DNA of 64,000 nt from an uncultured Thiomicrospira sp. (GTDB lineage: Bacteria; Pseudomonadota; Gammaproteobacteria; CAKMZV01), in assembly GCA_965195345.1 (NCBI GenBank), contig OZ239628.1, positions 1,280,001 through 1,344,000 on the forward strand, given 5' to 3'. Below, one piece after another: positions 3,587 through 22,634 of the stretch. The notes under the pieces were generated by a model that saw only the letters and a list, made by a program, of their open reading frames with translations, had not been told where the DNA came from and searched no databases. A program made the position numbers and the translations under genes. The first letter of the stretch is position 1; each line of letters begins with the position of its first letter.

Positions 3587-4766
3587 CTTTGTACATACAA
3601 TACCGAGCAGAGCGAATACCGTCTATTAACAAAAAATTCATAATCATCTCATCAAGATCGTTTTTTTCCTTATCCTCTATATCAACAATTGTATAGGCAA
3701 CGTCATTGTTAGACTTGTTTAATAGATCTTTGATATTTATGCTTCTCTGCGCTAACTCACCAGTTATTTTTTCAATCATGCCAGGTTTATTGTCATTCGC
3801 GATAACTATTCGCACTTCAAAGTCATCCTGCAAAATAACTTCAGGGAAATTAACAGCATTGGTGACGTTGCCTCTAACAAGAAACTCATTGAGTTGAGAT
3901 GCAACTAAAACAGCACAATTCTCTTCTGCTTCTTTCGTTGATGCTCCTAAGTGAGGCAAAGCAATCACATTATCAAGGTTAGAAACTCTTTCACTTGGAA
4001 AATCAGTCACATAACAACGAACCTTTCCTTGTTCAAGACCACTGATGATAGCATCTTCCTCGACAACTTCTGCCCTAGATAGGTTTATGATTATTTTACC
4101 TTCTGGCAATTTTTTCAACGATTCTGTATTAAATAAATTGCATGTAGAGTCTATCAACGGAACATGGAAGGTAATGAAATCGCACGACTTATAAATATCT
4201 TCCATCGTATTCACTCGAGTAATATTGGAATTAAGTTTCCACGCATTTTTCACCGTGATTTTAGGGTCAAATCCTGCGACCTTCATCCCTAAGGAACAAG
4301 CAGCGTTTGCCACTTCCACCCCTACAGCACCCAGTCCAATAATTCCCAATTTTTTTCCTGCGAGTTCGAAACCTGCAAACTGTTTTTTTCCAGCCTCCAC
4401 TGCTTCGTTCAACGATTCACCATTCATTGTTAAACCTCGAGTGAAATCGTATGCTTGGCAAATATTGCGAGCCGCTAAAAGCATACCCGCTATAGTTAAC
4501 TCTTTAACCGCATTCGCATTTGCTCCTGGCGCGTTGAATACTGGTATACCCCGCTCTGTTAGCATTTCAACCGGAATGTTGTTATATCCTGCTCCAGCAC
4601 GACCTACTGCTTTTAAACTTGAACCAAATTCCATGTCATGCATTTTAAATGATCGAACCATAATGGCATCAGGGTTGTCATGTCGAGTAACCGCTTTACA
4701 AAAATTTTTGTCAAACCGATTCAAACCTGCTCGTGCTATATTATTTAAAGTCAAAATGCTGTACAT
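3579..4766 (-). CDS. serA: D-3-phosphoglycerate dehydrogenase
   Basis: RAGAGYNNI, NANAVKEL, GLGAVG, PHLGAST, C-terminal ACT; next to serC. Confidence 0.9.
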   Translation of the reverse strand: MYSILTLNNIARAGLNRFDKNFCKAVTRHDNPDAIMVRSFKMHDMEFGSSLKAVGRAGAGYNNIPVEMLTERGIPVFNAPGANANAVKELTIAGMLLAARNICQAYDFTRGLTMNGESLNEAVEAGKKQFAGFELAGKKLGIIGLGAVGVEVANAACSLGMKVAGFDPKITVKNAWKLNSNITRVNTMEDIYKSCDFITFHVPLIDSTCNLFNTESLKKLPEGKIIINLSRAEVVEEDAIISGLEQGKVRCYVTDFPSERVSNLDNVIALPHLGASTKEAEENCAVLVASQLNEFLVRGNVTNAVNFPEVILQDDFEVRIVIANDNKPGMIEKITGELAQRSINIKDLLNKSNNDVAYTIVDIEDKEKNDLDEMIMNFLLIDGIRSARYCMYKDE

Positions 4767-4768
4767 TA

Positions 4769-5863
4769 TTATCCGTGTTGCTTGGCAAACTCTGCCATAA
4801 ATTCAATAAGTTTCTCAACACCAGCAAGTGGCATAGAATTGTAAATACTTGCTCGCATTCCACCGATCACCCTATGTCCTTTCAAATTGGTTAAGCCTTC
4901 AGTTTCAGCACGTTCTAAAAACCGTGTCTCCAGTGCACTCTCTCGTAATGTAAAAGGTATATTCATCCAAGATCTTGAACCTTTCTCTATAGGGTTGTTA
5001 TAGAACTCATTATCGTCAATAAATGCATAAAGAATTTCTGCTTTCTGCTTATTAATCTCACCCATGGCTTTCAACCCACCTTGGGCTTTCAGCCATGCAA
5101 AAACCTCCCCTGCCACGTACCAAGAAAAGGTAGCTGGTGTATTAAACATGGAATGATTTTCGCTTTGTTTTTTCCAGTTAAAAATAGTTGGTAAATCTGC
5201 ATCCAAACCATTTATCAAATCCTTCCGAACAATCAAAATAACCATTCCTGCGGGGGCAATGTTTTTCTGCGCTCCAGCATAAATAACGCCAAATTGACTT
5301 ACATCAATGGGTCGAGATAACAGCGTTGAAGAAAAATCAGCAACTAACGGCGTTATTCCACTGGCAGGAATATAGGAAAATTCAACCCCTGTTATTGTTT
5401 CATTAGGCGTGTAGTGCAGATATGCATACTCCTCTTCAAACTGCCATTCCTCAGGTTTTGGTACTCGAAAGTCAGCGGAAGTATCGGATAACACATCAAC
5501 ATCAATATATCGTTTACCTTCAGTTATTGCTTTCTCACCCCAATGCCCTGTTTTAATATACGCAGCTTTGCCTGCTCTATAGCGTAGATTCAAGGGAATA
5601 GCCGAAAATTGTCCCGATGCGCCCCCTTGTAAAAAAAGAACTTCGTAGTTTTCAGGAATGCTTAGTAATTCCCGTAAATTTTTCTCACACAGAGCAGTCA
5701 TTTCCATGAACGCAGCAGATCGATGGCTCACTTCCATAGACGACATGCCACTGCCTTGCCAATTAAGCAAGTCGTGCTGAACTTTCTCCAGCACTGCTTG
5801 AGGCAATTGAGCAGGACCGGGACTAAAATTATAAACTCTTTTCATTTCATTAGATTTATTCAT
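4769..5863 (-). CDS. serC: phosphoserine aminotransferase
   Basis: NFSPGPAQLP, EVSHRS, GAQKN, GHRVIGGMRASIYN. Confidence 0.96.
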   Translation of the reverse strand: MNKSNEMKRVYNFSPGPAQLPQAVLEKVQHDLLNWQGSGMSSMEVSHRSAAFMEMTALCEKNLRELLSIPENYEVLFLQGGASGQFSAIPLNLRYRAGKAAYIKTGHWGEKAITEGKRYIDVDVLSDTSADFRVPKPEEWQFEEEYAYLHYTPNETITGVEFSYIPASGITPLVADFSSTLLSRPIDVSQFGVIYAGAQKNIAPAGMVILIVRKDLINGLDADLPTIFNWKKQSENHSMFNTPATFSWYVAGEVFAWLKAQGGLKAMGEINKQKAEILYAFIDDNEFYNNPIEKGSRSWMNIPFTLRESALETRFLERAETEGLTNLKGHRVIGGMRASIYNSMPLAGVEKLIEFMAEFAKQHG

Positions 5864-8794: not shown

Positions 8795-8882
8795 GGTGAG
8801 ATGTCCGAGTGGTTTAAGGAGCACGCCTGGAACGCGTGTATGGGGAAACTCATCGAGGGTTCGAATCCCTCTCTCACCGCCA
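8795..8882 (+). tRNA. tRNA-Ser(GGA)
   Basis: GGTGAGATGTCCGAGTGGTTTAAGGAGCACGCCTGGAACGCGTG... long variable arm, GGTTCGAATCC T-loop, ends in CCA; anticodon GGA. Confidence 0.96.
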
Positions 8883-9006
8883 ATAAAGTGTTTGCTGTGC
8901 TACCGCCAAATTTAACGATTCGCCAGCCCTCTGCTTCTCTGTTAATAACATTTCTGGCTATTTAGTACTAATAGCAAACGTATTTGGGTATAGTTTGCAT
9001 CATTTA

Positions 9007-9495
9007 TTAGAAAGCCTTAATCATGGCCATGCCGACTGAGTAGTCGGCGACATCATTGGCGGTCATCGCCTTATCTCAGCTTTGGATAACCATATTGAAG
9101 TCAGAATGTGGCTGCTTATAGCACATAAACCATTGTTCTCTAACTATCGTCTCTCCAATAGGCACTGGATACTGTTGATACTGATCAGCAAAGATATAGG
9201 CCCCTAAGTTATTTTTAGTTCCTCTTAATGTTTGCAAGCTTTCACGAGCAGAATTTAATGGTTCGCCTGCTGACGTTTATAAATACCTTCATTCCTTAGT
9301 GTCATCACTTCATTTTTTTCAGCAATGACAGGCAATGCTAATGGCATATACCGGCTACCGCCCTCTTTTCCTTGGCTTTCAGATAACCGGCTAAATCCAT
9401 CTCATGAACGCGTTGCATAACCATAATAATCTCCCCCCATGTTCTTATTGTTAAACGTTGTTATACGTTCTCATCAAACCATCGATTACAATTCT
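9007..9495 (-). pseudogene. phage terminase large-subunit-like fragment
   Basis: Manual translation across stops and frameshifts: NRWFDENV..NNKNMG.IIMVMQRVHEMDLAGYL..LALPVIAEKNE..GAYIFADQYQQYPVP..WF..VIQS*DKA..ADYSV, matching terminase-like motifs (VMQRLHEDDL, AQYQQxP, QSWDTA, DYSV). Confidence 0.7.
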
Positions 9496-9705
9496 CTAAC
9501 CGTTTATGGTTGGCATATGGGAGGCAGTCCACTGCACAGCATTCTCCGCAAGGACTTGGCGAACTTTCATCGAGCACAGTGATTGGGGAAAATGAAATAG
9601 GTGGATATCTGTTTGTGGAGCCACTTTACACGTGACGCCTGTCAACGGCTCCGGAGCTAGCATGTTTTCCGATGAATAAACAGAAAGAGTGTCCAAATCT
9701 GTCAT
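9496..9705 (-). pseudogene. glutathione S-transferase N-terminal fragment
   Basis: HLFHFPQSLCSMKVRQVLAE resembles the GST-N LYHxxxSxCSxKVRxxLAE motif; truncated at 69 aa. Confidence 0.6.
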
Positions 9706-9824
9706 CTCAGGTCCCCTTCTTTCGATTTCGTTTTATCTAATCATAACTAAATAGCCCATCCAGTCAAATCAGAGCTAGATCACGGTAAGAACGTTATGAA
9801 GCTTTTAATTAAGAGCTGCTCTGT

Positions 9825-10712
9825 TTAAGTTCGATTCGAAGCTATAAAACGCTCTATATCTGAGGCCACATGCATAGTTTCATGGTGAGGCTCCGCTTTA
9901 TGGCACATAGCGCAGAGTACAGAAAGGTTGGACTCGCTATTATCCCCCTTCACACCATTAATATGATGGACATGCAATCCTTTCTTCATCTGGCTCATAT
10001 TTACCCCGCATCTTGAGCATTCCCAGCCACATCGTTGACGAAGATCTGTCGATATTTTTGGAAAATAATCAGTGTAGCCACCCCGCGGCTGAGATGCTGC
10101 TGTATGCTTCGGTGTGCGCCTCATGACATTAAATGTGCCATCATTCTCACCTAAGTAAGTCTGTAATGAGAAGTTTTTGACAGCCTCCACTCGATCACCT
10201 TTAAGTTGTCTACAGTCAAAGTCGTGATATTGCAGCTTATCCAAACATCTTTGGCACGGGGCAAGCCTGATATTGTCTAGAACATGATACTCACCATATA
10301 ACGAAATTTGATCTGGCTCTCTCTCTCTTGCCTCTACCTGAAACAGCCCTGACTTAGATCTTGAGAGAACATAACGCTCAAATCTCCCTTTCTTTTCCAT
10401 CTTAACGAGGACATCACACCAAGTAAAGTGGAAGCGGGGGGCGCTCTGTTGAGGAATTTCTGCCTCCAGATCGAGCTTACTGTAATTGGAATTAAAAATG
10501 TAAAGAATCGCAAGAACATCACCTTTATAAGTTAAGAATGGCCCTACGGTCTTGATATCCTCTCGTTCAACTATGAGACCTTCATTTGTCTCTAGCTGAA
10601 CAACTACTCTCTCAAATTCGGACAGCGCAGCTCCAAATTCGAGCTGGACTAAATCGGCTCCTATACGAGCTCTGAGCGAATCAAGCCGATCAGAACTATC
10701 GGAAAGTTTCAC
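9825..10712 (-). CDS. zorE: Zorya type II effector, HNH endonuclease
   Basis: C-terminal CSRCG..LHVHHINGVKGDNSESNLSVLCAMCH HNH motif; overlaps zorB as third gene of the operon. Confidence 0.82.
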   Translation of the reverse strand: MKLSDSSDRLDSLRARIGADLVQLEFGAALSEFERVVVQLETNEGLIVEREDIKTVGPFLTYKGDVLAILYIFNSNYSKLDLEAEIPQQSAPRFHFTWCDVLVKMEKKGRFERYVLSRSKSGLFQVEAREREPDQISLYGEYHVLDNIRLAPCQRCLDKLQYHDFDCRQLKGDRVEAVKNFSLQTYLGENDGTFNVMRRTPKHTAASQPRGGYTDYFPKISTDLRQRCGWECSRCGVNMSQMKKGLHVHHINGVKGDNSESNLSVLCAMCHKAEPHHETMHVASDIERFIASNRT

Positions 10713-11394
10713 TACGTTTCAACTTGGTTACAAGGTTAAGAAGATCATCTTCTGCGCGAGTTTTCATTCTAAATTCAACTCTGCGGGACTTGTCATAAAG
10801 TTCAGCATTACCAGCTTTAATAAGATCACTCGACGACATCCCGTGAGCTGTCATACTTGAAAAACTCCAATCTAGATAGCCAGAATTTGATGCAATGCTA
10901 GGAATGTTCAAAGCATAGCTCATTACGTTTCTAGATCTATTTTGAGATAGCTCAGTGTTATATATGTAACCACTAAGTTTAGTGTCAACTCCTCTAACAT
11001 TAGAGTCGGTGTGCCCCTCGATTCTTAACTCACTTATAGATTCTTTGTAGTCCCATATCACCTCCATAAGCCGAGGCATAAAATTATTCAGCAAATTCCT
11101 AAAGCTCGGAGAGAGACTTGAGCTTGCGCTTTCAAAGCTCGAATCGCTCTCAAAGCGGATCAATAAGCCTCCCTCACATATTGTCATATTCCAACGATCT
11201 ATATCCTGAGAAAATTCAGCGAGTAGATCTCCACATATTTCATCTCGTATGTCACTTACTTCATTAAAATATTTACTAAGATTCTCAATATATATCACTG
11301 CAATAAACAGGAAAATCATCATTAAACCCGCCATCATATCCGCAGCAGAAATCCATGTATCGTCATCGTTAGAACTTTTAGATAGAAAATTCAT
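10696..11394 (-). CDS. zorB: Zorya ZorB (MotB/OmpA-like)
   Basis: WISAADMMAGLMMIFLFI TM helix with conserved Asp; OmpA-like IEGHTDS..NTELSQNRSRNV..SRRVEF. Confidence 0.88.
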   Translation of the reverse strand: MNFLSKSSNDDDTWISAADMMAGLMMIFLFIAVIYIENLSKYFNEVSDIRDEICGDLLAEFSQDIDRWNMTICEGGLLIRFESDSSFESASSSLSPSFRNLLNNFMPRLMEVIWDYKESISELRIEGHTDSNVRGVDTKLSGYIYNTELSQNRSRNVMSYALNIPSIASNSGYLDWSFSSMTAHGMSSSDLIKAGNAELYDKSRRVEFRMKTRAEDDLLNLVTKLKRSETFR

Positions 11395-11405
11395 ATATTG
11401 ACCTA

Positions 11406-12803
11406 TTAATTCCTAGAAATTTTAGAGGTCAGATCAATTATCTTCGATGCAGATTGCTCGTAGGTATCTACAAACTTATCGGTAATCGATACCAAATTAT
11501 TCCCCATTTTGTCGAGCGAACGCTGGAGTTGTTTTTGCATTCCTTCATCTAGAATCTGGAGCGATTGATTCATATGTTCTGTATTCTCGGCAAGAGACTG
11601 ATCAATGCGCGACTTTATATCGTTGGAGGTAGACTGTTGACTGTCACTAAAGTCCTTAACTATTGACTCAACATTGGCACTTACTTTTTTAGTAGAATCT
11701 AGAACATTGTCGGCCGCAATATTAAGGCTATCAAGAACACCTTGAAACTTACTTTGCTGCTCAGCATACATTTTTTCTGAGTGTTCGAATGATGAGGTCA
11801 TCAGATCATTTAAGCCATTTGTTAGGTTTTTTATCGTTTGTTGAGTTTCAATTTGAGAATCACGCATTGACCCAAACTGCTTGTCGATAACAGATAATTC
11901 ATCCTGAATAGACTGCTTCAACCCCTCTGTTAGGCATGTAATCTGCTCCCTGATTGATGGAATTGCATTCTCAGCGTTTTTCCTCATCTCATCTAAAGAA
12001 GATAACCCCTCATGTAACTGGTTCATTCTCTCATCAGTTGCCTCAAAAACAATGGAGATTTTATCCATATGCTCAGGTATCTGCTGAGTAGAACCTTCGA
12101 TCAGCTTAACACTCTTTTGCACTGCATCAATACCAGCTTGGATCGCAAGGAATGCTTCCGTAAGCGCTCTAACTTGTTCTTTGTGCTCCTGTTGCCACTC
12201 TAACTGTGCACCGACTGCCTCATTGAGTTGCTTAAAGTTATCACCAAATTGTTCTGATATCTTTTCATTAAAGTCTTTAATAACAGACTCTAAAGCCTCA
12301 ACAAGTGCTTTACTACCATCCTCAGAAACCTTTTCGGCAAAGTCTCTAAAGTCATTCCTGAGTTTACTGAACTGAGTAGATAGACTTGAGTCACCCTCAC
12401 CAACTAATGCGTCTCTAACTTGGTTAGTCCCTTTAGTTATTTCTCGAAGTTCTAACAGTAAATCTTCTCCGGAAGCATCATTTGCTGATTGCTCGCTTCG
12501 TATTGACGGATACACCACACGGTAAAGAAGGCTTAAACCAAGCCCAACTACACTCGATAAAAATGCTAACTTTAATCCACCAAGAAGTCTCGGAATTGAT
12601 CTGTTCATGTCATTAACATCGAAAGCCTGAAGTGCTAAAAAGATGCCAAGAAAGGTAAAAAATATACCGAACGACGTTAGGATAGTCGGACCACTAGACG
12701 ATACTGCTGACAGCACCTTGCCTTTTGAGTTGATGCCAAAAAGACATAGTGCAAAAGTGAATAATATTAGACTTACTGAAATTGATTGGAGGAGACTTTC
12801 CAC
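11406..12803 (-). CDS. zorA: Zorya ZorA (MotA-like TM domain plus long helical tail)
   Basis: Three N-terminal TM segments (TSFGIFFTFLGI, GLKLAFLSS) followed by about 350 aa of predicted coiled coil; upstream of zorB. Confidence 0.88.
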   Translation of the reverse strand: MESLLQSISVSLILFTFALCLFGINSKGKVLSAVSSSGPTILTSFGIFFTFLGIFLALQAFDVNDMNRSIPRLLGGLKLAFLSSVVGLGLSLLYRVVYPSIRSEQSANDASGEDLLLELREITKGTNQVRDALVGEGDSSLSTQFSKLRNDFRDFAEKVSEDGSKALVEALESVIKDFNEKISEQFGDNFKQLNEAVGAQLEWQQEHKEQVRALTEAFLAIQAGIDAVQKSVKLIEGSTQQIPEHMDKISIVFEATDERMNQLHEGLSSLDEMRKNAENAIPSIREQITCLTEGLKQSIQDELSVIDKQFGSMRDSQIETQQTIKNLTNGLNDLMTSSFEHSEKMYAEQQSKFQGVLDSLNIAADNVLDSTKKVSANVESIVKDFSDSQQSTSNDIKSRIDQSLAENTEHMNQSLQILDEGMQKQLQRSLDKMGNNLVSITDKFVDTYEQSASKIIDLTSKISRN

Positions 12804-12947: not shown

Positions 12948-13461
12948 TCATCCTATGATTGAAACTACCTTTGTCAAAGGTGTTGAGCATGCGTAATCAC
13001 TATACTTTTGCATCAAGCGACGCCGTTTATCAATAAGATGACTCTTCTGATAGGTGCCAGCTGACTTATCTTTGATCTTATGCGCGAGGGCGATCTCTCC
13101 TGTCAGCCAGTCTTTATCGGCCTTCTCCGTATTCCATGTCTTAAATGTACCTCTAAATCCATTAACCGTGATTAGTTGGCCGCGCCTGTCTTTCCAACTC
13201 TCTTGTTTTTTTGCATTCGTTTCAATGCTGAGGACATTTTGATAATATTGTTCGATTAAAGCAATGGATTGTTTGCTGAGAGGGATGCATATCTTTTAGC
13301 CCTTTCATTCTGCGTGACGGTATAGACCAAATAGCTGGATTTCTCTCTGTTCTGAGATCATTAGATATAGCCACGTCTAAAATAGATGCGATTCTTCTTA
13401 CTCGATCTGCTGTCTCTGTTTTATCAAACCAAATCGGCTGTAATATTTCTAATATTTGCAC
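12948..13461 (-). pseudogene. P4-like tyrosine integrase remnant
   Basis: ILQPIWFDKTETADRVRR..NPAIW|SIPSRRMK and, in another frame, ITVNGFRGTFKTW..EIALAH..GTYQKSHLIDKRRRLMQKYSDY; internal deletion, frameshift and HGFR>NGFR. Confidence 0.85.
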
Positions 13462-13628: not shown

Positions 13629-13900
13629 ATGACCATCTTTAAAACCGAAACGCAGTTTGACAGGCCTTTATTGAGGTGCTTACCCATAAGGGGTGGAAGC
13701 TGAGATACTAAAAAATAAAACCGAAACCGAGTTACTAAAAAATTGAGCGGCTATTTTATTTGAAAATAATAAACAACGAAAAACGGGATCGCTTAAACGA
13801 TGTACAGCTCACCGCCAGCGAAATACAGCAGATTATTGAGCAGATAAAAGGACTTAAAACCCCGCTCAAACTAAACGGTTTGATTAACGGTAAAAGTGTT
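13629..13900 (+). pseudogene. hsdR: type I restriction subunit R N-terminal fragment
   Basis: MTIFKTETQF..FIEVLTHKGW..ILKNKTETELLKN*AAILFENN..DRLNDVQLTASEIQQIIEQI..TPLKLNGLINGKSV with frameshifts and a stop. Confidence 0.72.
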
Positions 13901-14125
13901 GGGCATCCTGATACTCTGGCTGATACCATAGCAGAGGAAACCTCTACAAGATACTCAGCCTATTGTTTAAAGAAATTTGGTTTTGTTGCCACCATCGGTT
14001 TGATAAAGTAGTTCTAGCAGGAGGAGAAATAGAAATTAAGTATTTAAAAACCAATATTGTTCGACCAGTAAAAACTTTGCTATTTGGGAAAGCCGTTTTG
14101 CAGTTAGGTAACGATCAAATTCCAA
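13901..14125 (+). pseudogene. archaeal-type S-adenosylmethionine synthetase fragment
   Basis: GHPDTLADTIAEETSTRYSAYCLKKFGFV / frameshift / HHRFDKVVLAGG matches the GHPD..HHNxDKxxLxGG signature of archaeal-type MAT. Confidence 0.65.
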
Positions 14126-14173
14126 TGTGGTGTCATTCAATCTTAGATTGTGAACAGTCGCAAAGCGGCTGGT

Positions 14174-14192
14174 AATCCCTCTCTCACCGCCA
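14174..14192 (+). repeat. att-like direct repeat of the tRNA-Ser 3' end
   Basis: aatccctctctcaccgcca is identical at 8864-8882 and 14174-14192. Confidence 0.92.
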
Positions 14193-14204
14193 TTATAAAA
14201 AATA

Positions 14205-14621
14205 GTGGTTCAATTTCACTCAGTGTATTGCGCTAATCCCACAGTACTGGGAATTTGGCTAGTCTCTTTTTTTGCAATTCTTCAACTGAGACAATTTTTA
14301 GTCCCATCAAGCTTTTCAAGCTTTGCTCCCTCTAACAAAGGCTATCTTACAGAATATTTTTACAATATTGTAAAAATAAATATAGAAGGATTAAAATCCA
14401 TTACAATAGATTCCACTTTTATGACAATATCAGGAAATACTTTGAAAACCCTTCAGGTATTAATGCCATCAAAAGAAAGCTTAAAGCTGCTAAAGTTTAA
14501 AATCAATGAAATTAATTCAAAACTAATTCCTTGCAAGCAACGAAGCCAAATCCTCATCCTACAGACACCCTCTTCCCCAAATTTATCAGCGATAAAATTA
14601 GGAAGATATTTACACCTCTAA
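14205..14621 (+). pseudogene. hsdS: second, different hsdS C-terminal remnant
   Basis: EYFYNIVKINIEGLKSITIDSTFMTISGNTLKTLQVLMP..INSKL..SQIL and, after a frameshift, DTLFPKFISDKIR (compare HsdS GSTF..IS..LK..P and RDTLLPKLMSGEIR). Confidence 0.6.
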
Positions 14622-14633
14622 GACATCTACACT

Positions 14634-15857
14634 ATGAGTAAAAAGACTTTTTTAGAATTGTTTGCGGGAGTTGGAGGTCTGAGCGAAGGTTTTATTGAAA
14701 GTGGTTTTAAACCAGTAGCATTCATTGAAAAAGACAAATATTGTTGTGATACATTAAAAACTAGGCAGGCGTATTTTCATTTAAAGTCAACCGATAAATT
14801 AAACATATATTATCAATATCTATCTAAAAAAATATCAAAGAGTGATTTTTACAACTTCATTCCTAAAAGGAAATTTGATATGATTTTTAACAAGGAAATA
14901 AATAAAAGTAGTATTGATGCATTAATTAGCAATATTGAAAAACGCTTAAAAAACAAGAAATTAGATTTAATATTAGGTGGACCTCCTTGTCAGGCATACT
15001 CTTTAATCGGCAGAGCACAAAATAAAACAAAAAAGAATGATGAAAGACTGTTTTTATATAAATACTATTTGCAATTTTTATCTAAACTAAAGCCTACTAC
15101 CTTTGTTTTTGAGAATGTACCTGGCTTACTGAGCATTGATAAAGGAGATTTATTTAATTCTATTATCAAAGACTTTGAAAAATTGGGGTATAAAGTAACT
15201 TTTGAGACATTAAATTCTCATGATTATGGTGTATTGCAAGAAAGAAAAAGGTTAATAGTAGTAGGAAACATTAATAAAAAAATCAACCTTGCTCAATTAC
15301 AGAAAAACAAGCTCAAATATAATGTTGAAGCTCTTTTTGCAGATCTTAAACCACTAAAACCCAGTGAAATAAAAAATCAATATGTTTCCTCTCCTAATGA
15401 ATATCTTAAAAAAAGTTCAATTAGAAAAGAAGAAGATGTGTTAACTTTACACAATGCAAGACCTCATAATCAAAGAGACTTGGAGATCTATAAATTTGCT
15501 ATAGATTTATGGAACAGAAGTAAAACAAGATTAAAATATTCAGATTTACCCGAAAAACTTAGAACCCATAAAAACGAGAAATCATTTTTAGATAGGTTCA
15601 AAGTAGTATGTGCAGATTTAGAGTCGTCACATACTTTAGTTGCACACATTGCAAAAGATGGACATCATTACATTCACCCAGATGTTAATCAATGCAGAAG
15701 TATATCAGTTAGAGAAGCGGCAAGAATACAGTCTTTCCCTGACAATTTCTTTTTTGAAGGTCCTAGAACCGCCCAATTTACTCAAATTGGCAATGCTGTC
15801 CCTCCATTACTCTCTAAGTCTTTATCCCAAAGTATAAAAAAATGTTATGAAACATAA
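14634..15857 (+). CDS. dcm: DNA (cytosine-5)-methyltransferase
   Basis: Motif I ELFAGVGG, IV GGPPCQAYS, VI ENVPG, VIII QERKR, IX/X REAARIQSFPD..QIGNAVPP. Confidence 0.95.
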   Translation: MSKKTFLELFAGVGGLSEGFIESGFKPVAFIEKDKYCCDTLKTRQAYFHLKSTDKLNIYYQYLSKKISKSDFYNFIPKRKFDMIFNKEINKSSIDALISNIEKRLKNKKLDLILGGPPCQAYSLIGRAQNKTKKNDERLFLYKYYLQFLSKLKPTTFVFENVPGLLSIDKGDLFNSIIKDFEKLGYKVTFETLNSHDYGVLQERKRLIVVGNINKKINLAQLQKNKLKYNVEALFADLKPLKPSEIKNQYVSSPNEYLKKSSIRKEEDVLTLHNARPHNQRDLEIYKFAIDLWNRSKTRLKYSDLPEKLRTHKNEKSFLDRFKVVCADLESSHTLVAHIAKDGHHYIHPDVNQCRSISVREAARIQSFPDNFFFEGPRTAQFTQIGNAVPPLLSKSLSQSIKKCYET

Positions 15858-17955
15858 TTTCAAATTTGAATTTTCTCCTAATTTAATCACCTTATTAGGA
15901 GAACAACTCATACACGATAAAAAAATTGCTGTATCTGAATTGGTAAAAAATGCTTATGATGCAGACGCAGATTGGGTTGAAGTAAATGTTGGGGAAAATT
16001 TCATTTCAATTTACGACAATGGTTGTGGCATGGACATTGATACTATTCAGAATGTTTGGCTAAAACCTGGAGTTAGTTCTAAAGATAATATTAAAACAGG
16101 TAGACTTACCCCAAAACATCATCGAATGCCTATTGGGGAAAAAGGAGTTGGGCGTTTAGGTTCTCATAAATTAGGACAAGCTATTGAACTATTTACCAAG
16201 ACAAAGCAAAGTAATGAAATTCATTTAAGAATAAATTGGCATGATATTGAGAAAGCAGACAGTTTGAGTAATTTGCAGGCTATTGTAGTGACTGAAAATA
16301 GTCAACCTGTTGTTTTCAAAGATAAGCAAACAGGGACGAAAATATTAATATCCGAGTTAAAAGAGACTTGGTTAGACTTGGATTACCAGAATCTTTCAAG
16401 AGATTTAACCAATTTAATTTCACCATTTGCAGGAAAAGATGAAAAATTTCAAATTAGATTTAAAAAAAATACCGAATTATTTACTAACGACTTATTAGAT
16501 GAGGTGAGACTCATTAAAGAAAATGCTTTATTTGAATTTCATGTTTTAATTGCAAATGGATTAATAAAAGATTTTCGGTATAAATTTAAAACTTGGCAAG
16601 GACTAGAAAAAGTGCGCCCAAGAACTATCACGCTTGCAGAAGATAAAGACTTTATAGCTAAAATGATTGGAAAAAAATCTAACTTTTTAAGTGTTGATAA
16701 CGAGATAGAAGAATATCAAAATCTTAATATTGGTGAAATTGAATTTCAAGGAGTCATATATGATTTTGACAATGAATTGTGGGACATTCAAACACAAATG
16801 CCTAAAAATAGAAAAAAAATCACAAAAGATTATATGAAATCAAATGGAGGGGTTCGTGTTTATCGAGATAATTTTAGAATATTTAATTACGGTGAGTATG
16901 GAAGTGATATTTTAGAGCTGGATTTGGAAAGAGTAAATCGCCCTGCTGGAAGAATTAGCTCTAATCAAGTCTTAGCAGCTATAAAGCTGAAAAGAAAAGA
17001 TAGCACAGATTTAATAGAAAAGACAAATAGAGAAGGATTTATAAATAACCGCGCTTTAACGGCTTTTCAAAACTGTCTAAAAGAAGTTACATTTAATTTA
17101 ATTAGCACATTGAAGCAAGATGATAAAGCTAAAATCATAACAGCGCACCTAGAGAATGCCAAAGACAGGGTAACAATAGAACACAAAATTAAGGATATAA
17201 AAAAACTGGTTGCTCAATCAAGTATTGAAGAGGACAAAAAAGAAAAAATAGGGGTAGAACTTGATAAATTATCAAAAGATTTTGATCATACAAAAAACGT
17301 ATTTTTAAGTGCCACCTCCACAGGATTAAATTTGGCAATTGTTGTGCATGAATTAAGACACCTACTAAATAGATTAAGTTCTGACCTCAAATTGGGAAAT
17401 TGGAATAAGGCTATAGATGTAACAAAATTACTACAAACAACAGTTAAAAATTATGGCGATATTATTCGTTTAGACAAAAAAAATAACCTTGTCTCGGTTC
17501 AATCTCTTATTAAAACAACTCTTTTCAATGTCGAGTTAAGGTTTGAAGCACATAATATTAAATATAGATTGGACATACCCAATGATTTAGAAATAAATGT
17601 AAAAAAGAATTTGGTTTCTGGCTTACTAAACAATCTATTTGATAATTGTATATATTGGCTTAATCACCAAAATATTGAAGATAAACAAATATATATAAAA
17701 GCCTACAAGAAAGAAGGGCAAGTGCATCTATTGATTGCGGATAATGGGTTAGGATTTATCATTGATTTTGAGTCTGCCATCATGCCCTTTATCACTGGAA
17801 GGCAAGATGATAGTTCTATGGGTATAGGCCTTTATTTGGCTGACCAAGTGATGACGGCACATCAAGGCTTTCTTTTGCAGGCTCAATTTGAAGAAGAAAA
17901 GCTACCTGATGAGTTTAGCAACGGCGCACTCATTAAATTAATATTTAAGCAATAG
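15847..17955 (+). CDS. MORC/GHKL ATPase fused to a cytoplasmic histidine kinase
   Basis: N-terminal ELVKNAYDADA, DNGCGM, GEKGVGRLG, GTKILI; C-terminal H-box VHELRH (H501), N-box NNLFDNCIYW, DNGLGF, MGIGLYL; no TM segment. Confidence 0.9.
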   Translation: MKHNFKFEFSPNLITLLGEQLIHDKKIAVSELVKNAYDADADWVEVNVGENFISIYDNGCGMDIDTIQNVWLKPGVSSKDNIKTGRLTPKHHRMPIGEKGVGRLGSHKLGQAIELFTKTKQSNEIHLRINWHDIEKADSLSNLQAIVVTENSQPVVFKDKQTGTKILISELKETWLDLDYQNLSRDLTNLISPFAGKDEKFQIRFKKNTELFTNDLLDEVRLIKENALFEFHVLIANGLIKDFRYKFKTWQGLEKVRPRTITLAEDKDFIAKMIGKKSNFLSVDNEIEEYQNLNIGEIEFQGVIYDFDNELWDIQTQMPKNRKKITKDYMKSNGGVRVYRDNFRIFNYGEYGSDILELDLERVNRPAGRISSNQVLAAIKLKRKDSTDLIEKTNREGFINNRALTAFQNCLKEVTFNLISTLKQDDKAKIITAHLENAKDRVTIEHKIKDIKKLVAQSSIEEDKKEKIGVELDKLSKDFDHTKNVFLSATSTGLNLAIVVHELRHLLNRLSSDLKLGNWNKAIDVTKLLQTTVKNYGDIIRLDKKNNLVSVQSLIKTTLFNVELRFEAHNIKYRLDIPNDLEINVKKNLVSGLLNNLFDNCIYWLNHQNIEDKQIYIKAYKKEGQVHLLIADNGLGFIIDFESAIMPFITGRQDDSSMGIGLYLADQVMTAHQGFLLQAQFEEEKLPDEFSNGALIKLIFKQ

Positions 17956-17964
17956 GATTTTATA

Positions 17965-18807
17965 ATGTACGACGTTTTATTTATTGATGATAAGTTTGAA
18001 GAAGTGCAAGAGACATTTTTAACATTAAAAGAATCGCACATTAGATGTTTTTATACCGATGCTGATCCAGAAAAAGATGGTATTTTTCCGTTAGAAAGAG
18101 ACAAACTCCTTTTCAAAAATGTCAAGTATATTTGTTTAGACCTTTTTTTAGCTAATCGTGGGATTGATGAAAGTCATCTTAATAAAAATGCGGTATCTAC
18201 TCTTGCAAATGTGGTTAAAAAATTTACTATCAATAAAGATTATAAAATTATTATTGCATCTGCCCACATAGAGGACTTTAAAAAATATGAAGATGATTTT
18301 AAGGAATATATAGGTGATGTTGAAGTTATTACAGAAGAAAAAGATGCAGATGCTTCAGGAAAACGATTTTCCATTCTTCATAAAAATGAACCTATATTTA
18401 AAGAGATTCTTCAAAACTCTATTCAAAATAATTTAAGGAACCTAATTATTAAAGAAGCGATAGAAATTGAAAATTCAATTTGGGAAAAAATTAATAATGA
18501 AGATTGTCAATTAAAAGGGTTGCTTGAATATTTGCCAACAAGAAGTAATCCTAATTTTGGAACTAAAATTGAACTATTTAACTTTTATTTTGTTAAAGAT
18601 AATAAAAACATTACTATAGAAAACTTACACACGTTTAGAAATCTCCGAAACGACGCGGCTCATAAAGATGATTCAGGTAAATTGATCAAGGATGTCAAAA
18701 AATTTGTAAAACTTTTTGATGAAAAATGTATCGTTGAAAACGAAAAAATTATTGCTGCAACATTGCACAGTATAGAAAAATTAAAGGGAAATATAAAGAA
18801 TGTCTAA
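17965..18807 (+). CDS. receiver-domain protein with a HEPN-like C-terminal domain
   Basis: VLFIDD, YICLD (D59), IIIASAH and EK receiver motifs; helical C-terminus with IIKEAIEIE and RNDAAH (R228-H233). Confidence 0.7.
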   Translation: MYDVLFIDDKFEEVQETFLTLKESHIRCFYTDADPEKDGIFPLERDKLLFKNVKYICLDLFLANRGIDESHLNKNAVSTLANVVKKFTINKDYKIIIASAHIEDFKKYEDDFKEYIGDVEVITEEKDADASGKRFSILHKNEPIFKEILQNSIQNNLRNLIIKEAIEIENSIWEKINNEDCQLKGLLEYLPTRSNPNFGTKIELFNFYFVKDNKNITIENLHTFRNLRNDAAHKDDSGKLIKDVKKFVKLFDEKCIVENEKIIAATLHSIEKLKGNIKNV

Positions 18808-18843: not shown

Positions 18844-19225
18844 TTAATTCTCAAACAAGGAAACTCTCACATATTTTATGTGGGAAAATTTCGCGTTACT
18901 ATCACAAATATTCAACACAAATAATTTAGTAACATTACCTATGGCTTCACTTTCTCCTGTAACAGGTGTATTACCTGGAATAAAACCATCAAAATATATT
19001 GCTTCCTCTAAAATTTCACCAACTAAATTTTCTGTGTTATTTTTACCGTGATACTGAAGTTCAGCATACAGATTAGCATACGCGGCAGTGATCGCACTCA
19101 TTGCAAATGACCCACCAATAAAGTGAGATGTCCCTTGACTCACAAATCCTTGTCAAAAGTCTCCACCTTGTAACTCGTTAAGTCCATCTCCAACAACACC
19201 TTGGCAGCATGATGTAAAACCCCAC
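18844..19225 (-). pseudogene. orphan Rhs-type toxin tip cassette 4 (degraded)
   Basis: QGVVGDGLNELQGGDF*QGFVSQGTSHFIGGSFAMSAITAAYANLYAE pre-toxin segment followed by about 70 unique residues. Confidence 0.6.
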
Positions 19226-19357
19226 CTTTGAAATTATAATATTCTGCTAATGTGTACCCATTTTTTCAAAGAGTTCTACTTCTTCATACCCTGTTATAGC
19301 AACTGCAAATCTTGCGAAAAGTTTAGTGTTATTACCTAAAGAGATAGGTACACTTCT

Positions 19358-19936
19358 TTAGAATTTTCCTTTGGAGGTTTTGTTTTTTCCGATGACTGTA
19401 AGATAAGCAAATGCAAGCGTTGTACTTGCCCATAAGTTTATTAAAATCATCAAGAAACTCGTAGCGTATGTGAAATAAAAATCTCCATATAAAGCAAAGC
19501 CTCCATATATAAATGATGCAATCACAAATACAATTGTGAACATTGTAAAAAATATTATCGACTGATGATTCTTTGTGGCATACCACGAATCTATAAATAT
19601 AAATTTTTCGTCAACAGCAATGCTAGGAAATACAAAAGAGAATCTGCTCAACGAATACAAAGAAAAAACGACCCATAATAGTGGAACCGTTATTTGAATA
19701 GAGACTGAGTATTGATATCCTATGACCATTATGATGATAATACCTAGAGGGAAAATCAACATTGCAATTAAGTATAACTGATATAGAAAGAAATCTATTT
19801 CACGCCAACCAAATTGAAACTTCCATTTAGGTATTGATTGAGGACCTAATATCACCAAACGATGTACAGCAACAGGAATCACACCAAAAAACATTAATAT
19901 TCCTAAAAATCTAAACACGGCCTCTATATTTTTCAT
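19358..19936 (-). CDS. multi-pass membrane protein (candidate immunity protein)
   Basis: 192 aa, about five hydrophobic segments; start overlaps the end of cassette 3. Confidence 0.6.
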   Translation of the reverse strand: MKNIEAVFRFLGILMFFGVIPVAVHRLVILGPQSIPKWKFQFGWREIDFFLYQLYLIAMLIFPLGIIIIMVIGYQYSVSIQITVPLLWVVFSLYSLSRFSFVFPSIAVDEKFIFIDSWYATKNHQSIIFFTMFTIVFVIASFIYGGFALYGDFYFTYATSFLMILINLWASTTLAFAYLTVIGKNKTSKGKF

Positions 19937-20260
19937 CCACAGGTCCAGTAGGGGCTAAATGACAATCTAGAGGGTTATTGGTTCCACAAGCATTTCCCGC
20001 ATTTCCCGCATTTCCATAATGGCCATCATTGAGCGGATTTCCATGCCGACCATCATGTCCGTTACCTAAGTCATTATACAGATGAGCATACGCGCAGTGA
20101 TCGCACCCATTGCAAATGTCCCACCACTTAACTGCGATATACTACCACCAATTACTGATTGCATTATGGTGGTTCCTGCCATACTCTCTCCTAAAAGATT
20201 ACCGATATCTTCAAACCCACCAAGAAAGTGAGATGTTGCTTGACGCACAAACCCTTGTCA
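19911..20260 (-). pseudogene. orphan Rhs-type toxin tip cassette 3 (frameshifted)
   Basis: ..SQLSGGTFAMGAIT / 1-bp loss near 20095 / AYAHLYNDLGNGHDGRHGNPLNDGHYGNAGNAGNACG..RV*; DNA homology to cassette 4. Confidence 0.62.
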
Positions 20261-20339
20261 CAAAAAGTGGTTTTTTACTTGGTGAGTTTAGCGTGCTTTA
20301 ATTTTGATCATATTACATTTAGCCTATAGAGCTATTCTT

Positions 20340-20792
20340 TTACTTGAACCATTTCAACAATGCTCGTTTAACTGAGTAATACTCTTGACTCATCTTAATA
20401 TTTTTCATTTTAGGAATTGAGATAATAAAGATACCTATAAAATATGCAAGTACGCCTTCAAAAATTCCTGGTGATGGAAACAAAAGCCATAGCAATGAAA
20501 TCGGTACTATTAATGCAAAAATAATGCTCTCTATATCTAAAGGAGAAAAAGAAACTACAAACGTAAATACTGAATGCAGATAACAGTACGACATAATAAT
20601 TAATATTTCATTTTTTCTCCAGAAATATAGTGCTATCATAGGTAATGAAATAGTGAAAATATAAATGGGTAAACCATAGTAAGCAAAAGGTAGATTTATT
20701 TCCCTACTCAACGAAAACGTATATGATCGAAGCTCAGCTGCTAAATAAGCAGTGCTGCCACAAATAATAAAAAAGATAACTGAAGATTTCAT
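20340..20792 (-). CDS. membrane protein, candidate immunity protein for the PLA2-like tip
   Basis: 150 aa, strongly hydrophobic; starts 5 bp after the stop of 20798..21400. Confidence 0.6.
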   Translation of the reverse strand: MKSSVIFFIICGSTAYLAAELRSYTFSLSREINLPFAYYGLPIYIFTISLPMIALYFWRKNEILIIMSYCYLHSVFTFVVSFSPLDIESIIFALIVPISLLWLLFPSPGIFEGVLAYFIGIFIISIPKMKNIKMSQEYYSVKRALLKWFK

Positions 20793-20797
20793 GTGCG

Positions 20798-21420
20798 CTA
20801 CTCAGGTTCATAAGTATTCTTAAACTGCCAATTAATAAACCTAATCATATTTTTTTGTCCATAAGTTAAGCTAGAAGGATTAAGCGAATTTAGAGAATTT
20901 AAATATTTTTGATCAATCAAATGTCTTTTGTAATTTGAATGTTTCCCAGGACTCCATTCAATGTTGTTATTATAAAAATCTATATCATGCTCTTGTGAAA
21001 AACCATCAATTCTATCAATTGGAAGGTATCTTGAGTCCGCAGGATTTGGGTATTGGTCATCATCCGTATGCCCCTTACCGGTGAAATTTCCATAGCGCGG
21101 TTCTTCTGGATTTATATTTCCATCTGTAGTACCACATTGCCCATGAAAACAATCATTATACAGATGTGCAATCGATGAATAATAGGCACCACGAACAAAG
21201 TCATTCCCTGATGCAGCTGCTGCTAATCCTCCTGCAAAACCAACAAAGATCGTGCTACCAATAACTGTTGCTGGATCAGACGAATAATCTTCTCCAAAAT
21301 TTTGTCTAAAGACATAACTAGCTGATTTCGAGATCACACCACGCAAAAATCCACTACCAAAATTACCACCACTAAATTGACTGACTGCCCCCTGTGTCAA
21401 TCCATGGAGTGCAAATACTT
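20798..21420 (-). CDS. orphan Rhs-type toxin tip cassette 2 with phospholipase A2-like domain
   Basis: (FALHGL)TQGAVSQFSGGNFGSGF..SIAHLYND pre-toxin segment, then YGNFTGKGH..PIDRIDGFSQEHDIDF..IDQKYL PLA2-like motifs. Confidence 0.68.
21152..21313. repeat. 162-bp direct repeat, copy 1 (copy 2 at 22473..22634)
   Basis: Aligned by eye: 6 mismatches over 162 bp; encodes RQNFGEDYSSDPATVIG..SSIAH(L/F)YND. Confidence 0.92.
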
Positions 21421-21432
21421 TATAGCTATACG

Positions 21433-21543
21433 GAGTGTCCTTAAACTCAGACCCTATCTCTTAGGCGGTATTCCGACCAAGAAGATGCTGAATGTGGCTT
21501 AACCTTTCTACTAATTTAGTCCCTTTAAAATGGGAGTATTACA
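21433..21543 (+). mobile_element. IS3-family (IS407-group-like) right-end remnant
   Basis: RPYLLGGIPTKKMLNVA* resembles an IS3 transposase C-terminus, followed by ..ccctttaaaatgggagtattaca ending in CA like a terminal IR. Confidence 0.45.
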
Positions 21544-21562
21544 CCGCGCGTTACTGAAGCAA

Positions 21563-22060
21563 CTATAAATTTACCCAAAAAATAAATGCTATAAAGAGAT
21601 TTATCAAACACCAAAAAGCTATGACTTTTTCAAAAATATATTCTCGGAGGTAATTTCTCAAGTATTGAGAATTTGTATCATCTGATTGCAGTGCTTTTAT
21701 CATTTTATAGGTAGTGGTAAAAGTAGGCGCAATTTTTTCTACATAATCTGTCTGATAATTTGTAAAAACACCATTATATGCTGCACTGTTTTTAATAATA
21801 GGTTCAAGCTTTTTCCACATTTCAGGGTGACAATGCTTAATAATATCCCAATTACTAAAATTTATAAGAGTCCTAAAGAAAGTTACGTATGAGACCAGTC
21901 CCGCATTAAGTAGAAAGCATAAAAATGCGTAATCAAATAAAGTATTAGAAAAATAGAAATAAAAAGTAAGAACCGTATTGATTATGCACAAAGTATAAAT
22001 TACGAAACGCTGTACGTTCGACAGAAACTTTGCTTTTTTTTCACAATAAATTCCTTGCAT
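21563..22060 (-). CDS. membrane protein, candidate immunity protein for cassette 1
   Basis: 165 aa with N- and C-terminal hydrophobic segments; starts 4 bp after the cassette 1 stop. Confidence 0.6.
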   Translation of the reverse strand: MQGIYCEKKAKFLSNVQRFVIYTLCIINTVLTFYFYFSNTLFDYAFLCFLLNAGLVSYVTFFRTLINFSNWDIIKHCHPEMWKKLEPIIKNSAAYNGVFTNYQTDYVEKIAPTFTTTYKMIKALQSDDTNSQYLRNYLREYIFEKVIAFWCLINLFIAFIFWVNL

Positions 22061-22064
22061 TAAA

Positions 22065-22634
22065 TTACGGTACGTTATCCGGTATTTGTGGTATCGTTAA
22101 AGGTATTATTTGTGTATGACTTATAACAGAAAATCCAACAAGTGAAAAAAGAGATGGTGACACTCCAAATTCAAAATAGCCTCCTTTATAGTTAGAGCCA
22201 TGTAAAAATGTTCCTCCGTATCCACCAGATATCCCATAGAATGTTAAATCACCCCCAACATCGGTCGAAGACCCTTCAAGCAGTGATAAATCGTTAGTAT
22301 CTTTTATCACAGTTCGTTTAAACGTGAGTGTACCTCCACCTGTACCAACTCTTTTTCCGCCTCCTTTTGAAAACATTCCTTTACATTCTCCATAATCATT
22401 ACAGCCTTTTCCAACACTGATTGCTCCTTCCCCTACTAATCCTCCAGAGATTTCTAATTCTATTATAGTCAGATCATTATAAAAATGTGCAATCGATGAA
22501 TAATAGGCACCACGAACAAAGTCATCCCCTAATGCAGTTGCTGCTAATCCTCCTGCAAAACCAACAAAGATCGTGCTACCAATAACTGTTGCTGGATCAG
22601 ACGAATAATCTTCTCCAAAATTTTGTCTAGAGAC
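22065..22634 (-). CDS. orphan Rhs-type toxin tip cassette 1 (Gly-rich tip; no obvious start for the full frame)
   Basis: Frame is open upstream of the 103-aa ORF: RQNFGEDY..SIAHFYND|LTIIELEISGGLVGEGAISVGKGCNDYGECKGMFSKGGG..; includes repeat copy 2. Confidence 0.65.
   Translation of the reverse strand, partial: VSRQNFGEDYSSDPATVIGSTIFVGFAGGLAATALGDDFVRGAYYSSIAHFYNDLTIIELEISGGLVGEGAISVGKGCNDYGECKGMFSKGGGKRVGTGGGTLTFKRTVIKDTNDLSLLEGSSTDVGGDLTFYGISGGYGGTFLHGSNYKGGYFEFGVSPSLFSLVGFSVISHTQIIPLTIPQIPDNVP

Follow-up and report, generated by a model that had tools for sequence, protein, structure and literature searches.

A 64,000-nucleotide stretch of the genome of an uncultured Thiomicrospira sp. 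(contig OZ239628.1, positions 1,280,001 to 1,344,000; here called the window, with positions counted from its first nucleotide) carries three adjacent genes on the plus strand that form a compact cassette. Gene 1 (14634-15857) encodes a C5 cytosine DNA methyltransferase of 407 amino acids, gene 2 (15847-17955) a soluble protein of 702 amino acids with two GHKL folds, and gene 3 (17965-18807) a protein of 280 amino acids, in which a predicted divergent receiver (REC) domain (residues 1-140; 17965-18384) is followed by a HEPN-like helical domain (residues 142-280; 18388-18807). None of the three genes is disrupted, and they are translationally coupled, with an 11-bp overlap between genes 1 and 2 and a 9-bp gap between genes 2 and 3. 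In an earlier reading of the letters alone (the original prediction), this locus had been proposed to encode a candidate defense system of three coupled genes more AT-rich than the core genes. The open reading frame (ORF) check agrees with the boundaries, overlap and gap given there, and the cassette has a GC content of 0.30 versus 0.395 for the window outside 14-23 kb.

Gene 1 belongs to the DNA_methylase family PF00145 (E 1.5e-62), matches the TIGR00675 dcm model (5e-54), and contains a PCQ catalytic motif at residues 118-120 (14985-14993). Its best PADLOC model is the DISARM-type methylase DrmMII (PDLC02649), matched over the full model length (4e-157). A DISARM identity of the cassette, prompted by this similarity, was rejected because no DISARM core gene was found among the neighbors: neither the DrmA helicase nor DrmB (DUF1998), DrmC or any other core gene was matched beside the methylase. 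The sole DISARM-type match in the neighborhood was a weak one to DrmD (2e-13), given by a DEAD-box helicase at a distance of 5 kb.

Gene 2 has an N-terminal ATPase domain of the GHL/paraMORC type (about residues 5-192), recognized through HATPase_c_3 (residues 27-145, E 1.5e-16), NF050001 and profile matches to PDB entries. An alignment with 25 relatives (35-79% identity) revealed that E31, N35, D38, D57, G59 and G61 of this domain are invariant in all of them, and the profile of these relatives matched solved structures of Hsp90-type proteins (2e-6), MutL (9e-6) and MORC3 (2.5e-5). The best named family is NF050001, the N-terminus of the BbrUII/HgiDII enzymes, which covers the first 188-192 residues of gene 2 (6e-28) with a score of 97.7 bits, where the family cut-off is 550. 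PADLOC returned only REase_II for this protein, and its N-terminus carries the label "Type II restriction enzyme" in REBASE-derived models; comparisons with Pfam, NCBIfam and PDB profiles revealed no nuclease domain in gene 2.

Behind a middle region (about residues 190-470), the C-terminal part of gene 2 is a histidine-kinase core. It comprises a dimerization and histidine phosphotransfer (DHp) helix with H501-E502 (17347-17352) and a catalytic domain (about residues 545-700) that matches HATPase_c (1e-11) and the kinase cores in the PDB. In the comparison of the two with solved HisKA-type kinases the alignment spans positions about 511-680, at a best E of 8e-10, and H501, E502, N596, N600, D632, G634, G636, G659 and G661 are invariant in 25 of the 25 aligned relatives. 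The protein has no predicted transmembrane segment, the highest 19-residue Kyte-Doolittle mean being 1.32. The two GHKL folds, the predicted phosphoacceptor histidine and the missing membrane segment are therefore as originally described. The assignment of the N-terminus to MORC has to be relaxed: MORC proper consists of a GHKL domain followed by an S5-fold domain, plus a MORC-specific motif (PMC2292703), and in gene 2 the GHKL part alone was matched, so that the domain is better described from its sequence as GHL/paraMORC-like than as demonstrably MORC.

The receiver and HEPN-like halves of gene 3

Gene 3 is matched by no Pfam, NCBIfam or credible PADLOC model (a PADLOC match to PDC-M08A was at chance level), and no Pfam receiver model recognizes it. 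An AlphaFold2 model built on 26 relatives, with a predicted local distance difference test (pLDDT) score of 89.9, places D8 and D9 after β-strand 1, D59 (codon at 18139-18141) at the end of strand 3, S99 at the end of strand 4 and K126 after strand 5. Structure comparison of residues 1 to about 155 with receiver domains gave Z scores of 8.3-9.8, and Foldseek identified FixJ (E 9.4e-4). In the 26-sequence alignment D8/D9, D59, S/T99 and K126 are nearly invariant. Model and alignment thus bear out the proposal of a complete receiver site, and the N-terminal half of gene 3 is, on the modeled fold, a divergent receiver with canonical residue placement. No DNA-binding domain was detected by Pfam searches in gene 3.

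The second half of the protein contains the motif RNDAAH (R228-H233; 18646-18663), of which R228, N229, A232 and H233 do not vary in any of the 26 relatives, against a mean column identity of 40%; R158 and E169 in the first helix of the domain are also conserved. A model of this domain alone (residues 142-280) reached a pLDDT of 84.3. When it was compared with known structures, HEPN-type chains occupied ranks 1-13 of the 50 listed rows, with Z scores from 9.5 to 6.9: MtlR (9.5; root-mean-square deviation 3.2 over 120 aligned residues), YggD (9.3), 1wwp (8.9), HepS (8.8), a Cas13-type nuclease (8.3), Csm6 (7.7), SO_3166 (7.5), HI0074 (7.3), two HEPN toxins (7.3 and 7.2), YutE (7.0) and AF_0298 (6.9). 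In this count the chains 1wwp, 5yep, 1jog and 1ylm are presumed to be HEPN proteins. MtlR and YggD (3brj, 3c8g) appear in PMC3710099 as one of the HEPN families. Residues 155-279 of the full-length model retrieved much the same proteins (MtlR, 9.9 and 9.8; HepS, 9.2; YggD, 8.3).

The HEPN motif has been defined as Rx4-6H with a polar residue after the arginine (PMC3710099), and RNDAAH fits this definition as Rx4H with a polar asparagine. The profile of the C-terminal domain also aligns its F..KI and RNxxAH motifs with HepS, in which the latter reads IRNKYAH (E 0.15). HepS is an anticodon nuclease with catalytic R100 and H105 (PMC13043305), which we equate with the aligned motif residues, allowing a numbering offset of 2. 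Weak matches to Pfam families of the HEPN clan were found among the 26 relatives, namely DUF4145 (16 of 26), HEPN_Swt1 (12), HEPN_Apea (5), RiboL-PSP (4), MAE_28990 (2) and Cthe_2314 (1). The C-terminus of gene 3 is therefore likely to be HEPN-like, as judged from sequence and model, and ribonuclease activity is predicted from its strictly conserved Rx4H motif. The receiver-HEPN architecture with a conserved RxxxxH, on which the original prediction depended, is thus upheld by the structural matches and by the motif.

Linkage, relatives and genomic setting

The order methylase, GHKL-kinase, receiver-HEPN is kept in all seven related genome loci that were analyzed, with proteins of 406-416, 701-716 and 243-286 amino acids, respectively. 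Their hosts are a member of Spirochaetia, three Gammaproteobacteria (one of them Ca. Spongiihabitans), a member of Fibrobacteria, Ekhidna and a member of Cloacimonadales, and the methylase reads through in six of the seven. From this distribution the cassette has evidently been transferred between phyla together with its methylase. Among 17 other gene 3 relatives, 12 are taken to share a contig with a close gene 2 relative, since the longest contig has the same length for both.

The flanking genes vary from locus to locus and include a type I hsdR (L001, L004), Eco57I-like type IIG enzymes (L002, L003), a ResIII/RE_endonuc protein (L006), zeta toxin and TPR proteins. Five of the seven loci carry other restriction-modification (R-M) or toxin genes beside the cassette, and nothing defense-like was found in the flanks of L005 and L007. 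No additional nuclease is common to the seven loci; since the neighboring R-M genes differ among them, the system has no extra nuclease as a conserved component, which goes against the refuting case named in the original prediction, a separate endonuclease always present in homologous operons and lost here. In the Spirochaetia locus L001 a full-length type I hsdR (8858-12109 of that locus) starts 4 bp before the receiver-HEPN stop codon and may therefore be co-transcribed with the cassette.

Very few proteins make up the gene 3 family: 18 were retrieved from 5.8 billion clusters, and 18 representatives from 1.84 billion. No longer, fused forms scored, which is weak evidence, and the ESM Atlas offered only unnamed "response regulator" clusters, leads at best. 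A search of two genomes from the same genus did not detect the cassette. Among public sequencing runs under one species label, only four runs of one study contain it, and no RNA run is listed.

Gene 2 belongs to a much larger family, at least 3,312 proteins at E ≤ 0.001 among the 8,000 candidates examined. Its distant relatives (25-34% identity) directly precede a receiver-like gene of 353, 428, 464, 555 or 617 codons. The C-terminal regions of these other partner types lack RNxxxH; they share a conserved Cys-Asp and end in an RVGL or RQGQP motif, and PF19192 matches only the 555- and 617-residue forms. Comparison of the gene 3 family with six other partners by hhalign gave a probability of 3.6% and aligned only the "DD" after strand 1; the alignment of the six sequences was poor. 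A C5 methylase lies upstream of the gene 2 relative in L025, L026 and L028. Relatives of gene 2 were also found on 63 plasmid records, of which 41 are from Campylobacter and 51 are typed as conjugative; on plasmids of Rhizobium and Burkholderia the kinase-receiver pair has dcm, vsr and restriction genes as neighbors. Within this large family the HEPN partner looks like a rare effector swap.

Several features of these distant loci were recorded in passing. The Cys-Asp/RVGL partner domain of L023-L028 and of the plasmid loci L029-L031 is without family or fold assignment, and relatives of the 353-residue type form Atlas clusters of 53-127 members. In L031, a Campylobacter jejuni plasmid (CP120313.1), the gene 2 relative is present in two pieces annotated as a 62-residue "hypothetical protein" and a 659-residue "sensor histidine kinase", which suggests that it is split or frameshifted; on these conjugative plasmids a 331-residue "response regulator" follows and no methylase is adjacent. 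In L024, which likewise has no methylase, a LEM-3-like GIY-YIG nuclease gene (4707-5303) overlaps the start of the GHKL-kinase gene, with an integrase gene just upstream.

In the window the cassette lies in a defense island next to a tRNA gene. A tRNA-Ser (GGA) gene (8795-8885, plus strand; ARAGORN) directly follows gyrA, and the 22-nucleotide segment at its 3' end (8864-8885, plus strand) has an att-like second copy in direct orientation at 14174-14195 (plus strand), identical at 21 of 22 positions. The two copies are 5.3 kb apart, the second one just upstream of the cassette, and they bracket the Zorya genes and an integrase remnant (13222-13461). At 14174-14195 the GC content drops from 0.40 to 0.32, and it is here that the Zorya island meets the cassette-bearing block; the arrangement suggests that islands have accumulated in tandem at a single tRNA gene, the cassette belonging to the block that follows. 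The same-genus genomes are too distant to define the island borders (GyrA 72-73% identical, helicase 41%).

The genes upstream of the cassette had been described as Zorya and hsd debris. The Zorya type II genes look intact on the minus strand, with PADLOC matches to ZorA2 (11406-12803, E 3e-75), ZorB2 (10696-11394, 6e-61) and the HNH-domain protein ZorE2 (9825-10712, 2e-56); the hsdS piece immediately upstream of the methylase (14205-14621) is indeed a fragment. Further upstream, two short plus-strand ORFs in different frames (13760-14175) match positions 6-55 and 55-102 of PF01941. They appear to be a broken gene for an archaeal-type S-adenosylmethionine synthetase, located in the defense island upstream of the hsdS fragment and the methylase. 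On the other side of the cassette, in a region of minus-strand ORFs (19061-22634), sequence modules repeat every 1.0-1.3 kb (one pair of 162 nucleotides is 96% identical), and small ORFs without family match lie between them. A 60-residue ORF (20066-20248) has a weak match (E 0.024) to the end of DUF637, a pre-toxin region of CdiA-like proteins. This region fits an array of orphan toxin-immunity cassettes.

Comparison with known systems

The original prediction knew of no experimental description of this combination of genes. Its general architecture proves to be already published. In 2021, Bellieny-Rabelo et al. (PMC8011034) reported a C5 methylase with a HATPase_c_3-HEF_HK-HATPase_c protein and a Response_reg_2 protein in 644 regions; they left the function open, suggested "environmental responses" and noted that a Pectobacterium homologue is induced in planta. 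These modules resemble the cassette in their upstream C5 methylase, their soluble protein with HATPase_c_3, a His-Glu DHp and HATPase_c, and their adjacent receiver-like protein with DD, D, T and K residues, as well as in the missing transmembrane segment and the R-M-rich surroundings. A difference lies in the PF19192 partners, which among the distant gene 2 relatives have 555-617 amino acids, another C-terminal region and no RNxxxH. The term HEPN has no occurrence in PMC8011034.

Ambrosia, a validated five-gene phage defense system, consists of an XRE regulator, an N6-adenine methylase, a HATPase, a REC-wHTH protein and an HNH nuclease (bioRxiv 10.1101/2025.09.30.679545). Here too a methylase, a histidine-kinase/Hsp90-like ATPase and a receiver are clustered, and in Ambrosia all of them are reported to be needed for defense, the receiver aspartate being essential. 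In contrast, and as far as a comparison by description goes, the cassette is limited to three genes, its methylase is of the C5 type and its receiver protein is REC-HEPN, and neither an XRE nor an HNH gene belongs to the operon; the only nearby HNH gene is that of ZorE on the opposite strand, about 4 kb upstream.

A precedent for the predicted output is Detocs, in which a kinase-activated receiver-effector causes abortive infection (bioRxiv 10.1101/2023.01.24.525353). Its kinase phosphorylates a receiver that bears a cell-stopping effector in place of a DNA-binding domain, and these effectors are swappable. Unlike the cassette, Detocs as described there has a kinase with a TPR sensor, a stand-alone buffer receiver and no methylase, and the main text of that report names PNP, REase, TOPRIM and transmembrane domains as effectors, not HEPN. 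No stand-alone receiver gene was found in or beside the cassette.

Coupling between such ATPases and HEPN domains has been proposed before. ParaMORC ATPases fused to HEPN domains of the Ymh type occur in R-M contexts and were suggested to be analogues of PrrC/RloC (PMC3710099, where Ymh was identified as HEPN), and one REBASE family was noted to have a GHKL N-terminus with a kinase-like C-terminus and another to have a Ymh C-terminus (PMC2441816). The fusions, such as R.NmeAIP, share with the cassette a GHL/paraMORC ATPase coupled to a HEPN RNase in R-M neighborhoods (PMC3710099; PMC2441816). They are single polypeptides, whereas the cassette would interpose a predicted His-Asp phosphotransfer, and its HEPN domain is not of the Ymh family. 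The BbrUII/HgiDII GHKL restriction enzymes match gene 2 at their N-terminus and are likewise paired with C5 methylases, and it is their C-terminal part that is replaced in gene 2 by the histidine-kinase core. A 2026 preprint still treats paraMORC defense as a proposal (10.64898/2026.09.30.754977); VcSduA, of the paraMORC3 type, has been validated (PMC12137116).

HepS from the Gifsy-1 prophage (PMC13043305; PDB 9oij, 9oik) is the closest solved protein with shown defense activity, at Z 8.8-9.2 and with both F..KI and RNxxAH, with the weak sequence match already noted. It forms tetramers of a single-domain protein, is activated by a tail-tip protein of the phage and has no receiver, kinase or methylase. 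Full-text literature searches returned no description of a receiver-HEPN effector or partner, and supplementary tables could list one. The claim of novelty therefore narrows to one part, with methylase, HATPase-kinase and receiver in print and Ambrosia validated: the receiver-HEPN effector alone appears undescribed.

A proposed signaling route and its alternatives

The features described above are best explained by a self-contained, horizontally mobile, methylation-linked conflict module with a predicted phosphorelay-controlled HEPN ribonuclease output. We give about even chances to a HEPN RNase that is linked to methylation, gated by a phosphorelay and responsible for abortive infection or an arrest of growth, its mechanism being inferred. 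According to this model, the C5 methyltransferase would mark host DNA and the GHL/paraMORC-type ATPase of gene 2 would serve as a cytoplasmic sensor, which most likely clamps unmarked DNA or else detects another infection cue. The sensor would drive autophosphorylation of H501 in its own kinase core, and the phosphoryl group would pass to D59 of the gene 3 receiver. Dimerization or reorientation of the receiver could then assemble a composite R228/H233 site from two HEPN domains, and this site may cut RNA, possibly tRNA as HepS does, so that growth of the infected cell stops in an abortive infection. The more specific version, in which a GHL/paraMORC clamp reads the methylation state directly and acts through His-Asp phosphotransfer on the HEPN ribonuclease, is held more tentatively, at somewhat less than even chances. 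A predicted complex of the kinase core dimer (two copies of residues 470-702) with the receiver (residues 1-140) scored 0.21 versus a mark of 0.32 and is used neither for nor against binding.

A number of observations weigh against this interpretation. The HEPN assignment is affected by the result that gene 3 of the window has no Pfam HEPN match at the listed thresholds; its relatives give weak matches, the best being HEPN_Swt1 at E 3.2e-4 and DUF4145 at 1.3e-3, and no curated HEPN family model matched the gene 3 family above its cut-off. Z scores below about 13 can reflect a common arrangement among helical bundles, and the top structural match, MtlR, is a regulator from a family many of whose members are thought to be non-catalytic (PMC3710099). 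The fold check proposed for this domain was divided: HEPN proteins took the top rows of the structure comparison, but Foldseek on the domain-only model gave no row at E ≤ 0.001 (best MtlR, E 0.16). The assignment is nevertheless favored because RNxxAH is invariant in all 26 relatives and aligns with the catalytic motif of HepS.

Other points concern the module as a whole. The families of the published modules, PF19191 and PF19192, match neither gene 2 nor gene 3: PF19191 (HEF_HK) gave no match on gene 2 at E up to 0.1 (one 55%-identical relative reached 17.6 bits versus a cut-off of 24.1), and PF19192 is missing both from the matches listed for gene 3 and from the 25 families most often matched by its 26 relatives, and it has no match in the whole genome. 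Distant gene 2 relatives in L023, L024 and L027 have no adjacent methylase, and the methylase of L005 is split by two frameshifts beside intact partner genes, perhaps through an error of assembly. In Ambrosia, the two-component part is reported to control transcription, and methylation did not protect phage (bioRxiv 10.1101/2025.09.30.679545); the methylation-sensing link may therefore not be the classical one.

The same parts could also operate with reversed polarity. Constitutive phosphorylation of the receiver would then hold the HEPN RNase off in an antitoxin-like manner, until infection, loss of ATP, or inhibition of the methylase or ATPase stopped the phosphate flow and left an active unphosphorylated HEPN domain. 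The conservation of all catalytic residues is compatible with either direction, the cassette has no separate antitoxin or buffer receiver, and loss of the buffer-receiver aspartate in Detocs is toxic, so phosphate flux needs control (bioRxiv 10.1101/2023.01.24.525353). In the validated Detocs and Ambrosia systems, however, mutation of the receiver aspartate is reported to abolish defense and not to be toxic, and receiver phosphorylation usually favors dimerization, which HEPN sites need (PMC13043305). Reversed control is unlikely in our estimation and the most credible of the alternatives. A purely selfish role comes next and is also unlikely: the methylase and a HEPN toxin would kill cells that lose the island as demethylated DNA builds up, with no part in phage defense. 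R-M systems can behave as addiction modules, and the cassette is AT-rich, island-borne and patchy across phyla, with gene 2 relatives on the plasmids described above, most of them conjugative. Post-segregational killing and phage defense are not exclusive, however; related architectures (Ambrosia, Detocs) defend against phage, and the neighbors of the cassette are defense genes. A search of 50,697 phage records returned no relative of gene 3, and this absence bears on neither the addiction nor the phage-defense reading.

The prominence of MtlR and YggD as best structural matches (Z 9.5 and 9.3) raises the question of whether the HEPN domain is a non-catalytic, MtlR-like regulator that binds RNA or protein. 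The two-component pair would then only tune how strongly the methylase, or a restriction enzyme encoded elsewhere, is expressed, by the logic proposed for Ambrosia, whose REC protein is proposed to act on transcription (bioRxiv 10.1101/2025.09.30.679545), or by that of a C-protein; the restriction-enzyme label of the gene 2 N-terminus and the R-M genes that adjoin the cassette in L001, L002, L003 and L006 point the same way. Against it, R, N, A and H of the motif are invariant in every relative, whereas inactive MtlR-type members are reported to have lost it (PMC3710099); no DNA-binding domain was detected in gene 3 and no nuclease domain in gene 2, and the neighboring R-M genes vary by locus and are absent in L005 and L007. 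We regard such a regulator as improbable, slightly more so than an addiction module. Far less probable again is housekeeping epigenetic signaling, in which an orphan Dcm-type methylase and a two-component system would process cellular RNA upon a metabolic signal. The function left open for the published modules, with its suggested environmental responses and in planta induction in Pectobacterium (PMC8011034), would suit such a role, but neither of the two same-genus genomes searched yielded the cassette, the gene 3 family numbers 18 proteins among 5.8 billion clusters, and the cassette lies in a defense island at a tRNA gene and appears to have moved between phyla with its methylase.

If the proposed phosphorelay-gated route is correct, gene 3 would be the first phosphorylation-gated HEPN RNase, and the compact three-gene system would represent a new way of controlling HEPN nucleases. 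The receiver would switch the RNase on or off directly, with no transcription step, and the methylase-linked ATPase would be an infection sensor, so that self/non-self discrimination of the R-M style would be wired directly to abortive infection, a two-component re-invention of the PrrC/RloC principle. It would also clarify the role of the widespread methylase-plus-kinase modules on chromosomes and conjugative plasmids. The wider GHKL-kinase family, with at least 3,312 members and at least four other partner types, would then constitute a large set of effector-swapping immune two-component systems.

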